Shown: positions 1-32,000, counted from the first letter of the stretch. The stretch: 32,000 bases of DNA from Candidatus Saccharimonadota bacterium (GCA_965229705.1 OZ245922.1:930001-962000), one strand, 5' to 3'. The notes: generated from the sequence alone by a model not told the origin. Numbers and translations are program-made.

Positions 1-276
1 ATATTGTGTTGAAAGTGTTTTTTGAGGACGAATCATAAGATATACGATAACCCCTACAGGAGTTGAGATAATCATGAAAATCACACAAAAAAATTGAAAA
101 AAGAAATTACTGCTGCGAGATGAAACATCCTGAGCCACCCATACAATCAGAGAAATCCAAATAACAAAAAAGTAGAGAAGTAAGAACTTGAGAGCAAACT
201 CAAAAGTAAAGAGATCCCAAAGAACCACTGTGTAATACTCTAGAAAGGTATTTATCTGAGATGAGATATTTTCCAT
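1..276 (-). CDS. small membrane protein with PLD-nuclease N-terminal (PLDc_N)-like domain; 3' end lies beyond window start
   Basis: ATG at 276 is preceded by an in-frame TAA. It reads MENISSQINTFLEYYTVVLWDLF...VIWISLIVWVAQDVSSRSSNFFFQFFCVIFMIISTPVGVIVYLMIRPQKTL, with two hydrophobic helices and W-V-A-x-D ... Y-L-x-x-R-P patterns. No TAA/TAG to the window edge. Overlaps the trmD 3' end by 25 nt. Confidence 0.5.
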   Translation of the reverse strand, partial: MENISSQINTFLEYYTVVLWDLFTFEFALKFLLLYFFVIWISLIVWVAQDVSSRSSNFFFQFFCVIFMIISTPVGVIVYLMIRPQKTLSTQY

Positions 277-953
277 TGGTCGATTTTTTTATGATTACCA
301 CTCAAGAGGACTGAAGGAATAGAAAGTCATTCAAAAACTTCTGGTTTAGTATACACAGGATATTCTTTTTGTCGAGAAAACTTTTTTGAAAAACTTTCTT
401 CTTCATGGGATATTTGCTTTCCCAGAACTCAAGGCAACAAACGAGTGATACCATCTATAAAGACTTGAGCTGGAAGTTCTCATCCGGTAAGAATAAAGTC
501 TCATAGTGATATTTGATAATCAACATAGAGATCAATGATTCGTTCATCAATTCATTCGTAGTGACCACATATGACAATGTATTCCGTATTATAGTTTTTC
601 TCCTGCTGAATAAGTGTTGTTTTTCCCTCATTTGAGGTGGAGTATGAAGAAATAAAGCTCTCAAACAGTTCTTGTGACATTTTTTGTCATTGAGGAGTGA
701 AGTATATTGTTGGAACCTTGCCTCGCTGCTGATATATATAGTTGATAGCCTTGGCAAGTGGTTCTGCTCTGAGTACCTGTCAGTGCATTCAGTATGCCTT
801 ATCATCAATATGTCCAGAAGTTTCAGGCGAGAAATCGTTGAGTTTATAGAGTGATAGTTCCAAGAGTCATTTTTTTATTGCGTTTCAGATGATACTTGTT
901 TTTGAGAAACTGCTGAAAGAATCAGGAAATATAGTGATAATATGAAAATGCAT
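252..953 (-). CDS. trmD: tRNA (guanine37-N1)-methyltransferase TrmD
   Basis: The frame is open only if TGA is sense. It reads MHFHIITIFPDSF...DDKAYGMHGQVLRAEP...[51 protein letters not shown]...LLSGNHKKIDQW, with TGA at conserved Gly (e.g. 480..482 in LTGGELPA). Its ATG overlaps the cmk stop (TAATG). 233 aa. Confidence 0.9.
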
Positions 954-1474
954 TATGAAATCTGAGAGATAATATTATTGATGATTTCATCAGGAGATAG
1001 GTACTCAGCATCAATGATGATATCAAAACATGATTCTTGAGGAGGAAATCATATTTTTGGATAAATACGCTTATATCGAGTAATAAGTTCTTGTTCACGA
1101 ATACGATTCTTTTTTTCTATTTCTTGGATATCTCATCATTCTCTTTCTTGGATTCTTGTATAGCGGATTTTTTCATCACATTTGAGATATATTTTGATAC
1201 TGTCACTGATAAAATGCCAGGCAAGACGACTTTCAAAAATAAAATGATTATGAGTTTCTCCATATTCTTTTGTAGACTGATCGAGCTGTATATCAAAGTT
1301 GGTATTATTTTTTCCTATCGTTTTTTCAAACTCATAGACGCTCATTCATGCGTCAGCAGCAAATTGTCTATACATATTTCCCGTGGACATAAATGTGTAT
1401 GAGAGTTTTTCAGCCAGGAGTTTTCAAATAGTTGATGTTCCACTCCCTGCAAGTCAGAAGATGGTTATTTTCAC
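953..1474 (-). CDS. cmk: cytidylate kinase, short (archaeal-like) type
   Basis: GTG start. It reads VKITIFGLAGSGTSTIGKLLAEKLSYTFMSTGNMYRQFAADAGMSVYEFEK...ESRLAWHF...IIIDAEYLSPDEIINNIISQIS. P-loop glycines are encoded by TGA. TAA stop at 953..955. 173 aa. Confidence 0.8.
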
Positions 1475-1569
1475 GAAAATGATTCTAAAAAATATATGAG
1501 AGGATTATAGAGAAAAAATTGGAAAAATATAGATATTTTTAGACTCTGAGAAAAATTCTTAAAAAATAC

Positions 1570-1598
1570 TTGACAATAAAATAAATATATTATATACT
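1570..1598 (+). promoter_or_regulatory. sigma-70-type promoter TTGACA-17 nt-TATACT
   Basis: TTGACA at 1570..1575, exact 17-nt spacer, TATACT at 1593..1598, about 24 nt upstream of the ATG at 1622. Confidence 0.5.
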
Positions 1599-1621
1599 AT
1601 ATATTCTCTAATAAGCTATGT

Positions 1622-2407
1622 ATGAACAATCCATCTTATTCTGGAAATCTTGAAAATTCTCACTCAGAAACAAATAGGTATCCTTCTCGTGAAGAAAGAG
1701 AGCATCAATGGCATATTATTGCTGAGGCTGCAAATGTAGATGAGTCTCAAGTGATTATTACTTCGGATAGTATTACTATAGCGGAAGTATGAACTTTTTG
1801 TTTTAATGATGAAGCAGGGACATATAATTATGCAGAAGCTTTAGAATACAAATATCTTCCTGATATCACCGTATGGGAGAATCTCATAAAGTTTATGACC
1901 GATTGGAATCCTGAACATAAAATAACCTTTCTTAAAGAAGTTATGAATATGAATATCATGTTCAAAAATGATATTTGGAGCTTTTATTGTGCTTCTAATG
2001 CTGATGATGAAAAAAAAAGGAAATGGTGTAGGTATCAATACTTCTTCGAAAGAAATCCGACGAACAACTCTCATGGAGGGGTTTCGTTTTCCTGTGAGGT
2101 TGATGAAGGGATAAAAGATCTATTTTTGATACAACAAAAGAGCGCAGCTTTAGCTGCGCTCTTTTGCTTTTGGGGAGAATTTTCTCTATTTTTCTACCTC
2201 AGCATCTTGCACATCATCTTCTGTTTTTCACGTTTCATCTGACGTATCAGTACTTTCAGCATTTGCAGAAGCATCAGCTTGCGCATATATCTTTTGTCCT
2301 ACTTGCATCAGAGCGTCTTGCAGCGCCTTTGATGGAGCTTCAAATTCTTCTTTATTCGCATCTGATTTTCCAAGTACTTCTTTTACATCTTTGATTTTTT
2401 CTTCTAG
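1622..2407 (+). CDS. hypothetical protein (3' end uncertain)
   Basis: ATG at 1622, reading [41 protein letters not shown]...[55 protein letters not shown].... The first in-frame TAA/TAG is TAG at 2405..2407. The ORF therefore runs through the terminator hairpin at 2136..2166 and about 220 nt antisense into dnaK. I recognise no family. Confidence 0.45.
2136..2166. terminator. bidirectional rho-independent terminator hairpin between convergent genes
   Basis: AAAGAGCGCAGC-TTTA-GCTGCGCTCTTT is a perfect 12-bp stem with an A-run on the left and a T-run on the right. It lies 20 nt downstream of the dnaK stop. Confidence 0.7.
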
Positions 2408-30325: not shown

Positions 30326-30405
30326 AGAGATAGAACATATAATATGTATATATCTTTATGGTATCACATTATGTATGAGAAATGCAAGAAATGGGAGGGT
30401 ATTTT

Positions 30406-31425
30406 CTAATATATTAGTCTCTGTTTTTGTATATTTACGACTTTCCATCGAGAGTCTTGTTGCTGCAGGAGCTGGAAAATTCCTTCAAAATGGAGCATAC
30501 CATAGAGAATAATGATTTTTTCATATTCACTTTTACGAACTTCTTCAACGACATAGGCATTTCTTTCGTCGAGGATAACAGAAAAAATATCAGGTCAAAA
30601 CTGTCAGAGTATCATATCTTGCAATCATGGATTTTTAATAAATATATTCATAAATCCTTGATTGATATACTGCAGTATCTTTTTCTCGCGTGGACGAAGA
30701 CCGTCAAGTACCTGGAGGATATCACTCTCTATATTTACAATATCCTTTTGCATGCTTCTTTGAATATTCTCTTGTCCTACTTTCTCACGATACAGCCTCA
30801 CAACACTGTCTAGGTCAAGATCAACATTTATATCTTCTGTACTTCCAAAACCAAGAAAATCCTGATTATTTTGGGCAACCATACCATAGAGCTCTGAGAG
30901 TTTTTCATAGCTCTCACTATCAAGGTCTATTCATAAAGCTTGACGAAAGATAGTAATACTCTCCTCAGAGCCCCCACTCACTCCTTCATAGAAGAGTACA
31001 TATCCTTGAGATTTTTTTTCTTGAATATTTTCTTGAACTTTTGTATAAAATTCTGGACTCGCAATATGACTCATAGCTTGAAAAAATATAGTTTTTTCGC
31101 CATTACTCAAACTATAAGACTCAATATACGCTGGAGATATATGGTTATGGTAGTAAAAAAAGATACATAAACTTACAATAACTCCTCAAATAACTATATA
31201 AACCCTGAGTAAAAAATATATAGCAAAGTTTTTCCAAGAGGGAAGAGGCGCGTTTCGAAGATACTTCCACAAGCACGAAATGCAAAAAGCTACGAGCGTA
31301 TAAAAACCTAGAGAAATAGTGAGGGAAAAGACTCAGTATCATCAGGAGATAGAGAATAATACAGCGATGTATAAGAGGCTGAGTCATATTATAAGGAGGA
31401 TATTTCTAGGGGGAATGTGGTTCAT
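30406..31425 (-). CDS. TraB/GumN-family protein with N-terminal transmembrane region
   Basis: MNHIPPRNILLIIGLSLLYIAVLFSISGGYGVFSLTISLGFYTLVAFCI... forms the TM helices. It continues ...GEKTIFFQAMSHIASPEFYTKVQENIQEKKSQGYVLFYEGV... and ...ILDERNAYVVEEVRKSEYEKIIILYGMLHFEGIFQLL. 339 aa. The track ORFs 31145..31387 and 30625..30882 are only partly in this frame. Confidence 0.6.
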
Positions 31426-31531
31426 GTTTTTTTAATTTATACGAAGTTATAAAAAATATACTTGCGTTTTTATGAAAGCATATATACTTCACGAAGGAAA
31501 TAGTTTTTTCACGTTTTGTACAAAAACAATT

Positions 31532-31957
31532 ATGAAGTACAGAGTATACATTTTGATGTGATTTTGCATACTTTTTTCTGCATTTTTTTGAACACAGGCG
31601 TGATTTTTTGATGACTTTCTCAATGATGGAGCACCAGAAATTCGCTATTGTCAGTGAGATTATGAGTGTGGTCTTGACCAGGGAATAGAAAAAGTAAAAG
31701 AAGGTATTACAGATATCGAAACAGAGAGAACCGCCTCTGAGTATGTCCAAGATTTGGTAGTATACATACTGACATTTTTATCTATAGTGGCAGTACTGTA
31801 TATCATATATGCGGGTTTCCAGATCCTCCTTGGAGGATGAGATGAAGAAAAAGTCAAAAAATCAAAACAAACTATCCTGTATGTTGCTATAGGTGTTATA
31901 GTGATTTGGCTTGCTTGGCCTATAACCAGTTTTATATTATTGCTTCTTAACGCATAG
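31532..31957 (+). CDS. VirB2/TrbC-like type IV secretion pilin (CPR-type T4SS pilin)
   Basis: Signal peptide MKYRVYILMGFCILFSAFFGTQA. Two C-terminal helices follow: YVQDLVVYILTFLSIVAVLYIIYAGFQILLGGGDEEKVKKSKQTILYVAIGVIVIWLAWPITSFILLLLNA. 141 aa; 5 TGA = Gly. Confidence 0.7.
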
Positions 31958-31960
31958 ATT

Positions 31961-32000
31961 ATGTCAGACACAAAAACGGACTTTTATAAAAGAAAAAGAG
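31961..32000 (+). CDS. start of a further ORF (MSDTKTDFYKRKR...), truncated by window end
   Basis: ATG 4 nt after the pilin stop, open to the window edge. Too short to classify. Confidence 0.3.
   Translation, partial: MSDTKTDFYKRKR

Follow-up and report, generated by a model that had tools for sequence, protein, structure and literature searches.

UGA is read as glycine in a 32-kb segment of a small, low-GC genome of probable Gracilibacteria type

We analysed a stretch of 32,000 nucleotides (the window; GC 35%) from a contig of 1,006,762 bp (~1.0 Mb), and give its open reading frames (ORFs) here with their in-frame TGA codons and stops. The left part is encoded on the minus strand: a partial membrane-protein ORF of 92 codons that runs off the left edge (1..276; no TGA), trmD (252..953; 10 TGA, stop TAA; TIGR00088), a cytidylate-kinase-like P-loop kinase (953..1474; 6 TGA, TAA; PF13189, PF02224), dnaK (2186..4078; 6 TGA, TAG; NF001413), rplT for L20 (4769..5113; 1 TGA, TAG), rpmI for L35 (5170..5364; 1 TGA, TAG), infC for IF3 (5392..5904; 5 TGA, TAA), rpsT for S20 (5921..6226; no TGA, TAG; orthologue in the related contig L091), pheT (6393..8726; 16 TGA, TAG; TIGR00472), recA (8835..9821; 11 TGA, TAA; TIGR02012) and an RNase T/DEDD-type exonuclease (10161..10772; 7 TGA, TAA; PF00929; orthologues in L089 and L091). 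On the plus strand follows an rve-family transposase (10962..12230; 5 TGA, TAA; PF00665) in a putative insertion sequence with 24-nt inverted repeats at 10851-10874 and 12241-12264, an element missing from the syntenic relatives. A Sigma70_r4/HARE-HTH protein (12337..13392; 5 TGA, TAA) and a membrane protein (13658..14296; 8 TGA, TAG) return to the minus strand.

The right part is mostly on the plus strand, with a pilin-like protein carrying an N-terminal methylation motif (14647..15789; 12 TGA, TAG; PF07963), a second pilin-like protein (15793..16665; 6 TGA, TAA), an rluD-type pseudouridine synthase (16681..17727; 8 TGA, TAA), tsaD (18328..19440; 11 TGA, TAG; TIGR03723), a WecG/TagA/CpsF glycosyltransferase (19878..20759; 5 TGA, TAA; PF03808), tyrA for prephenate dehydrogenase (20729..21817; 10 TGA, TAA), pheA for prephenate dehydratase (21820..22632; 3 TGA, TAA), rlmH (22645..23097; 4 TGA, TAG), a prlC-like M3-family oligopeptidase (23081..25234; 8 TGA, TAA), a secreted beta-propeller protein (25401..27692; 10 TGA, TAA; PF09826, E = 3.8e-120), a PrsW-family membrane protease (27650..28657; 6 TGA, TAG; PF13367) and a TrbC/VirB2-like T4SS pilin (31472..31957; 5 TGA, TAG; PF18895). 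Minus-strand genes in this part encode hypothetical proteins at 17892..18233 (4 TGA, TAG), 19462..19806 (1 TGA, TAG) and 29465..30325 (9 TGA, TAA), a TPR protein (28619..29125; 8 TGA, TAA) and a membrane protein (30406..31425; 9 TGA, TAG). Pilin-like and T4SS pilin genes are typical of CPR gene content.

This inventory depends on reading TGA as a sense codon. Counting only ORFs that do not overlap and reach 100 codons, table 11 covered 46% of the window with a longest ORF of 298 aa, and treating TGA as sense raised coverage to 92% with a longest ORF of 780 codons. The comparison of tables proposed in an earlier note on this DNA thus yielded a doubling of coding coverage. Two standard-code Saccharibacteria loci, used as a control, reached 95–96% under table 11 and gained nothing when TGA was read as sense. 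In-frame TGA was present in 29 of the 31 ORFs, at 1 to 16 per ORF carrying them and 200 codons in total, corresponding to 33% of the glycine codons in the window and 21.9 per 1000 codons. The earlier assertion that TGA interrupts all recognisable housekeeping genes was therefore a slight overstatement, as it stands for these 29 ORFs and fails for rpsT and the partial ORF at 1..276. All 30 complete genes terminate at TAA (16) or TAG (14) and none at TGA, in agreement with the earlier statement that only TAA and TAG end the reconstructed genes, and the 29 TGA-carrying genes hold no in-frame TAA or TAG. HMM models were matched end to end (the PheT profile, for example, over positions 1-798 of 798), indicating that no gene reads through a true stop. 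The proteins stop where their HMMs or orthologues stop, and termination at TAA and TAG only leads to tight, regular gene spacing.

To determine which residue TGA specifies, we replaced it with X in 14 genes and compared each with its orthologue in E. coli K-12, obtaining 82 aligned TGA columns. Glycine was the E. coli residue in 56 of these and tryptophan in none (background glycine 7.7%; binomial P = 7.7e-43), and cysteine appeared only once in the 82. In the same alignments GGN codons faced glycine in 131 of 198 columns; the 26 TGA columns that face a residue other than glycine there (K, D, T, A and others) occur in the same proportion as for GGN and so reflect divergence rather than a second meaning. 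TGG columns held tryptophan in 9 of 19, and no E. coli Trp column in the 14-gene alignments carried TGA in the window, as expected from the earlier claim that none of the TGA codons examined sits at a conserved Trp and that table 4 does not fit. For the other 60 sense codons the standard residue ranked first in 54 cases, and the remaining six (AGC, GTC, TCG, TGC and TTG among them) had low counts or near-ties. PDB-based alignments likewise placed glycine at TGA columns.

The same result was obtained gene by gene. All 11 TGA columns of recA have a glycine consensus among 79 standard-code RecA sequences, seven of them invariant, and E. coli TrmD has glycine at 10 of 10 TGA columns. Glycine was also found at 4 of 5 aligned TGA codons in dnaK (against a PDB copy of E. 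coli DnaK), 3 of 5 in infC and 11 of 15 in pheT (both against E. coli), 7 of 8 in tsaD, 2 of 3 in pheA and 4 of 7 in the M3-family oligopeptidase, as well as at the single TGA of rpmI and at the TGA within the P-loop motif G-L-A-G-S-G of the kinase at 953..1474. In the TPR protein, TGA falls on repeat glycine positions (NK-TGA-..., KL-TGA-RYEEA), where a third repeat has GGN. The individual sites that had been singled out earlier were read directly from the sequence: TGA lies at Gly2 of dnaK (4073-4075), twice in succession in recA (TTT-TGA-TGA-NALKFY, 9195-9200) and again in its LGGGY segment (L-A-L-TGA-GGN-TGA-Y), and at trmD LTG-TGA-ELPA (480-482), tyrA ILG-TGA-TGGFG (20771-20773) and pheA YQ-TGA-NPGSY (21838-21840). 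The TGA reported for rpmI (VT-TGA-SGK) is present at 5317-5319, one codon away from the position given for it (5314-5316), which is TCT (Ser). The tryptophans of DTWRID (15487-15489) and QWEIV (11631-11633) are both TGG.

Scoring five proteins against NCBIfam profiles with TGA translated as either Gly or Trp favoured glycine by a total of 164 bits. The Gly version scored higher for RecA (TIGR02012; 523.4 against 484.9 bits, +38.5), TrmD (TIGR00088; 215.2 against 174.3, +40.9), TsaD (TIGR03723; 335.2 against 305.5, +29.7), PheT (TIGR00472; 645.0 against 604.7, +40.3) and DnaK (NF001413; 940.5 against 925.8, +14.7), and the Trp version of TrmD fell below the 195-bit curated cutoff of its profile. 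Column tally, coding coverage and HMM scores thus all agree with the earlier note that TGA is glycine across the window, and each of its tests that could be run on the window favoured this assignment. UGA is a fifth glycine codon here, UAA and UAG are the only terminators, UGG is Trp and the rest of the code is standard. We conclude that the window is almost certainly chromosomal DNA of a small, low-GC CPR bacterium of Gracilibacteria (BD1-5) type that uses translation table 25.

Several other readings have to be weighed against this one. Table 4, in which UGA is tryptophan, is used by Mycoplasmatales, the insect endosymbionts Hodgkinia, Nasuia, Zinderia and Stammera, and some Eggerthellaceae, and these genomes resemble the window in having captured UGA as sense in a reduced, mostly low-GC genome. 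It restores ORF length equally well, so that long ORFs fit both tables and cannot tell them apart, and a public protein collection holds the window's own PheT with Trp at TGA. The two differ in what UGA encodes, and the column tally already refutes tryptophan: it occupies none of the 82 TGA columns, no Trp of E. coli is matched by TGA, conserved Trp positions are already served by TGG, the recA TGA columns have a glycine consensus in standard-code sequences (7 of 11 invariantly), and translation with Trp costs 164 bits and takes TrmD below its cutoff. We regard this reading as scarcely credible. That table 11 fragments every long gene might instead be ascribed to pseudogenes, or to sequencing or assembly errors creating TGA stops in a standard-code genome. 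This is virtually impossible given 200 TGA codons but not one TAA or TAG in frame within the 29 genes, the same TGA sites in the independent assemblies L011, L089 and L091, the position of TGA at Gly columns and the full-length matches to models; neither frameshifts nor in-frame TAA/TAG were seen at a rate like that of TGA.

A dual meaning, in which UGA is glycine within genes yet still terminates in certain genes or contexts, or marks selenocysteine insertion or programmed read-through, could draw on Hanke et al., who found individual peptides bearing Trp, Ala, Asp or Lys where the codon is UGA (PMC4032931). We consider it very improbable, since TGA terminates not a single one of the 30 complete genes, the proteins finish level with their HMMs or orthologues, and TAA and TAG as sole stops give tight, regular gene spacing; for selenocysteine or read-through, 22 UGA per 1000 codons are far too many, Cys is found at just 1 of 82 columns, and an Rfam search of the window, which bears on SECIS-type signals, returned no matches. 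The genome might also belong to Absconditabacteria (SR1), whose extended code adds CGA and CGG as Trp to UGA as Gly; low GC and the identical UGA reassignment are compatible with this lineage, which the earlier note had kept open alongside Gracilibacteria. In the window, however, CGA and CGG are arginine and CGA is not rare: its frequency is 85 per 10,000 codons, compared with <37 in Absconditabacteria (PMC8629427), and in the E. coli alignments its columns hold Arg in 17 of 34 and Trp in none. CGG (1.1 per 1000; 6 columns aligned) lies on conserved Arg at dnaK aa 70 and tsaD aa 48, and the named PheT neighbours among the 120 closest are all Gracilibacteria. With CGA, CGG and AGG still arginine, the code is plain table 25 rather than the Absconditabacteria variant, and membership in that lineage is very unlikely.

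The assignment to a Gracilibacteria-type lineage, as suggested in the earlier note, is drawn from nearest named homologues and synteny rather than from a phylogeny, together with the in-frame TGA common to relatives. The ribosomal proteins encoded in the window are limited to L20, L35 and S20, and it carries no rRNA gene. Thirteen of the 120 closest PheT homologues are named, and all 13 are 'Candidatus Gracilibacteria bacterium', an NCBI label that is loosely applied (preprint 10.64898/2026.05.24.727570). The ENA contigs L089-L091 are syntenic with the window from tsaD through dnaK; the RecA proteins of L089 and L091 are 90% identical to that of the window, and nearly every matched gene in these two contigs has 1-20 in-frame TGA, rpmI of L091 having none. 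In the recA of a Gracilibacteria MAG (L011), three TGA sites are common with the window and TGA stands at two sites that are GGN in the window, so UGA and GGN are interchangeable at glycine positions between relatives.

The nearest RecA sequences among the GTDB species representatives listed by the scan are 72-76% identical to that of the window, the best TGA-using one (76%) coming from a Gracilibacteria MAG. No other protein in a collection of 5.8 billion exceeds 64% identity to PheT, its own Trp-translated copy (P0001; 98%) aside, so the organism represents a distinct genus- or family-level lineage. GTDB class JAEDAM01 comprises the orders BD1-5 and Absconditabacterales, the recognised table-25 orders, and these same PheT and RecA identities would be the basis for placing the organism in a deep lineage outside both, which is unlikely. 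If true, such a placement would extend UGA as glycine to a broader set of lineages, as with the JAYELJ01 and GCA-2401425 genomes to which the gTranslate preprint draws attention, and would help to date this reassignment relative to the later step by which CGA and CGG became Trp.

Our preferred reading, plain table 25 in a Gracilibacteria-type bacterium, concerns a rare alternative code that is already known. UGA as glycine was predicted in 2012–2013, received proteomic validation in 2014 and is listed as NCBI table 25; Campbell and colleagues reportedly described it in Absconditabacteria (SR1) in 2013, and Rinke and colleagues are said to have found table 25 in Gracilibacteria (BD1-5/GN02) in the same year. 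As it has been on record since 2013, the earlier note was correct and the finding is not novel. The further statement that no lineages other than Absconditabacteria and Gracilibacteria are known to have the reassignment accords with the literature, in which Shulgina & Eddy 2021 also describe CGA and CGG as Trp in Absconditabacteria (PMC8629427). Table 25 in Gracilibacteria (BD1-5/GN02) is documented by Hanke et al. 2014, whose proteomics identified 97 peptides specific for Gly and 3 specific for Trp (PMC4032931), and by Sieber et al. 2019 (PMC6851277). The window shows no difference in kind from these genomes, sharing abundant in-frame UGA as Gly, UAA and UAG as sole stops, UGG as Trp, a small low-GC genome and Gracilibacteria as nearest named homologues.

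Decoding of UGA would fall to a dedicated tRNA-Gly (anticodon UCA) carrying the glycine identity set G1:C72, C2:G71, G3:C70 and U73, and loss of release factor 2 (prfB) would leave UGA without a competitor, with RF1 then terminating at UAA and UAG; tRNA-Gly(UCA) and RF2 loss are also the presumed mechanism in Absconditabacteria. We take the tRNA and RF2 parts of this scheme from the literature because the 32-kb window encodes neither a tRNA nor a release factor. The loci of relatives contained no tRNA gene except one tRNA-Gln in L011. Consistent with this scheme, prfB is absent from all BD1-5 genomes and prfA is present (PMC6851277).

The value of the assignment is practical and lies in annotation, as every other reading of the window presupposes table 25. 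Under table 11 the genes are broken into fragments, and table 4 gives full-length proteins but places Trp at ~2.2% of residues, which are structurally critical glycines. Such mistranslation lowers HMM scores, as with TrmD, and across the clade it would distort sequence alignment, structure prediction and the analysis of conservation. In the public PheT copy P0001 each of the 16 TGA sites is translated as Trp, and 87 of the 120 closest PheT homologues appear to be mistranslated in the same way.

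Read in the standard bacterial code (table 11), the window (32,000 bp, GC content 35.4%) seems to contain little coding sequence: ORFs of 100 codons or more, counted without overlaps, account for 46% of its length, with a maximum of 298 aa. When TAA and TAG are taken as the sole stop codons, such ORFs account for 92%, and the longest frame extends to 780 codons, consistent with the proposal in the earlier note that TGA specifies glycine throughout this DNA (table 25). The same test applied to two Saccharibacteria loci, which use the standard code, gave 95–96% coverage under table 11 and no gain from reading through TGA, indicating that the jump is specific to the window and its relatives. 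In a curated list of 31 ORFs (9,138 codons) we counted 200 in-frame TGA codons, equivalent to 21.9 per 1000 codons and to 33% of glycine codons; they are absent only from rpsT and from a partial ORF of 92 codons at the left edge. TAA and TAG occur in frame solely as terminal codons (16 and 14 times, respectively) and no gene ends in TGA, so that the assignment of TAA and TAG as the only terminators holds. Five of the six TGA positions that had been cited individually are exact; the sixth, in rpmI (5170–5364, minus strand), lies at 5317–5319, one codon upstream of the quoted 5314–5316, which reads TCT.

To avoid circularity in determining which amino acid UGA encodes, we masked TGA as X before aligning 14 genes (trmD, cmk-like, dnaK, rplT, rpmI, infC, pheT, recA, rluD, tsaD, tyrA, pheA, rlmH and prlC-like) to their E. 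coli K-12 orthologues. The E. coli residue was glycine in 56 of 82 TGA columns and tryptophan in none, the other columns showing residues such as K, D, T and A. This proportion of glycine matches that of the GGN columns used as a control (131/198) and far exceeds the 7.7% glycine background (P = 7.7e-43). TGG columns contained tryptophan in 9 of 19 cases, and no tryptophan column of E. coli had TGA in the window, consistent with the retention of TGG as a tryptophan codon. In an alignment of 79 standard-code RecA sequences, drawn from among the matches listed by a genome scan with RecA, all 11 TGA columns of recA (8835–9821, minus strand) had a glycine consensus, and seven of these were glycine in 79 of 79 sequences. 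Alignments of RecA and DnaK to PDB sequences, inspected by eye, gave the same pattern.

Profile scores point the same way. With TGA translated as glycine rather than tryptophan, NCBIfam scores were higher for RecA (523.4 versus 484.9 bits), TrmD (215.2 versus 174.3, the tryptophan version falling under the curated cutoff), TsaD (335.2 versus 305.5), PheT (645.0 versus 604.7) and DnaK (940.5 versus 925.8), a combined advantage of 164 bits over 54 codons in five of five proteins tested. The window proteins cover curated NCBIfam models end to end, indicating that no gene has been artificially prolonged past a real stop. An internal control is provided by a TPR protein (28619–29125), in which TGA occupies the two canonical glycine positions of consecutive repeats and a third repeat has GGN at that position. 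Both the observation made in the earlier note and its interpretation are correct: UGA is decoded as sense where glycine belongs, and it never terminates a gene.

Several alternatives to this reading were weighed. Translation of UGA as tryptophan, as in table 4, is excluded by the absence of tryptophan from the 82 TGA columns and by the lower NCBIfam scores it yields. Pseudogenes or sequencing errors could in principle be invoked for the interruptions, but the frames are broken by TGA alone and never by TAA or TAG, the TGA codons fall at glycine columns, and sites are common to independent assemblies; we therefore exclude this explanation as well. The frequency of UGA and the residues with which it aligns rule out selenocysteine and read-through. 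It is highly improbable that UGA has a dual meaning as glycine and stop: all protein ends fit their families and none is formed by TGA.

An origin in the Absconditabacteria, in which CGA and/or CGG additionally specify tryptophan, as they possibly do in some Gracilibacteria (PMC8629427), is unlikely. In the window CGA is common (8.5 per 1000 codons) and aligns with arginine in 17 of 34 columns and with tryptophan in none, CGG is rare (1.1 per 1000 codons) and lies on conserved arginines, residue 70 in DnaK and residue 48 in TsaD, and AGG is likewise arginine. A tally over all codons gave no second reassignment, and none of the type described by Shulgina & Eddy (AGG, CGA, CGG) was found; the code of the window is plain table 25. 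Moreover, all 13 named matches among the best 120 PheT homologues are labelled 'Candidatus Gracilibacteria bacterium'.

Apart from an entry for the window's own PheT, the closest PheT match is 64% identical, and the matches listed in the RecA genome scan are mostly from Proteobacteria and Saccharibacteria at 64–72% identity, a set that served well as a standard-code reference but is a poor guide to placement. Relatives with conserved gene order are found among ENA metagenome contigs. In two of these, L089 and L091, the genes are arranged as in the window (tsaD, rluD, two pilin-like genes, Sigma70_r4/HARE-HTH, RNase T, recA and pheT), with synteny extending to rplT in L091; in a third (L090) the order continues via rpsT, infC and rpmI to dnaK. 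RecA from L089 and L091 is 90% identical to that of the window, and in-frame TGA occurs throughout both contigs. In the recA gene of a Gracilibacteria MAG, three of five TGA codons lie at TGA sites of the window and two at GGN sites, an exchange of the kind expected of synonymous codons. In-frame TGA density varies widely among close relatives: pheT contains 16 TGA codons in the window (6393–8726, minus strand), 17 in L089 and 3 in L091, and recA contains 11, 10 and 5, at a GC content of ~35% in all three.

The top RecA match among those listed (JAYELJ010000060.1, 1–14311) belongs to JAYELJ01, flagged in the gTranslate preprint as an unexpected table 25 user (preprint 10.64898/2026.05.24.727570). 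We rejected it as a marker of the window's lineage: it has no synteny with the window, its RecA is only 72% identical and its recA has no TGA, whereas L089 and L091 are syntenic and 90% identical. Its ORF coverage rises only from 87% to 95% with TGA as sense; if reassigned there, UGA is sparingly used.

The use of UGA for glycine is not new; it is textbook knowledge and codified as NCBI table 25. Its importance here is for annotation, as any further reading of the window must be in table 25. The entry for the window's PheT in the public protein collection, located on a 1,006,762-bp NCBI/ENA contig, is identical to our translation except for M at the GTG start and tryptophan at 16 of 16 TGA sites, indicating that the sequence was already public and that the gene caller of the collection used table 4. 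Such mistranslation of the clade is widespread: tryptophan-rich sequences make up 87 of the 120 PheT homologues closest to that of the window, with glycine and tryptophan mixed within the same columns. Public protein sets for the clade are widely contaminated by table-4 translations.

Published work on the clade suggests how the code would operate. A tRNA-Gly(UCA) carrying the glycine identity set would read UGA, and loss of RF2 with retention of RF1 would leave UAA and UAG as the sole stops. Low GC probably pushed UGA to rarity, with capture of the codon afterwards (PMC8629427; PMC6851277; preprint 10.64898/2026.05.24.727570). In enrichment proteomics of BD1-5, glycine-specific peptides outnumbered tryptophan-specific ones by 97 to 3 (PMC4032931). 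The 32-kb window itself contains no tRNA gene, no Rfam match at gathering threshold and no release-factor gene, and scans of five relatives' loci yielded one tRNA-Gln and no other tRNA.

Between RNase T and Sigma70_r4/HARE-HTH lies a putative insertion sequence of ~1.4 kb (10851–12264), bounded by imperfect 24-nt terminal inverted repeats (10851–10874 and 12241–12264; 88% complementary) that enclose an rve-family transposase gene (10962–12230). The gap between the flanking genes is only ~85–110 bp in L089–L091, and the segment therefore resembles an insertion. The presence of five in-frame TGA codons in the transposase gene suggests a mobile element adapted to a table-25 host.

Upstream of dnaK (2186–4078, minus strand), by ~290 bp, is a CIRCE-like inverted repeat, TTAGCACTT-N9-AGGTGCTAA (4369–4395), with three mismatches to the HrcA operator consensus, where chance would give 0.01 matches. 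The repeat falls within a 690-bp stretch (4079–4768) with no convincing ORF. On its downstream side, the dnaK stop is followed after about 20 bp by an inverted repeat (2135–2166) of two perfectly complementary 15-nt arms around a 2-nt loop, which resembles an intrinsic terminator. No ORF, tRNA or Rfam match occurs in the 711 bp at 1475–2185. Elsewhere, the prephenate dehydrogenase gene tyrA and the prephenate dehydratase gene pheA are adjacent (20729–22632), and both products lack the chorismate mutase domain that is fused to their E. coli counterparts. Enzymes for these last steps of the aromatic pathway may be unusual for CPR bacteria, because amino-acid biosynthesis is usually missing from CPR genomes. 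Surface-appendage genes are typical of episymbiotic CPR bacteria; the window has two adjoining pilin-like genes (14647–16665), of which the first encodes an N-terminal methylation motif, and, apart from these, a TrbC/VirB2-type T4SS pilin gene (31472–31957).
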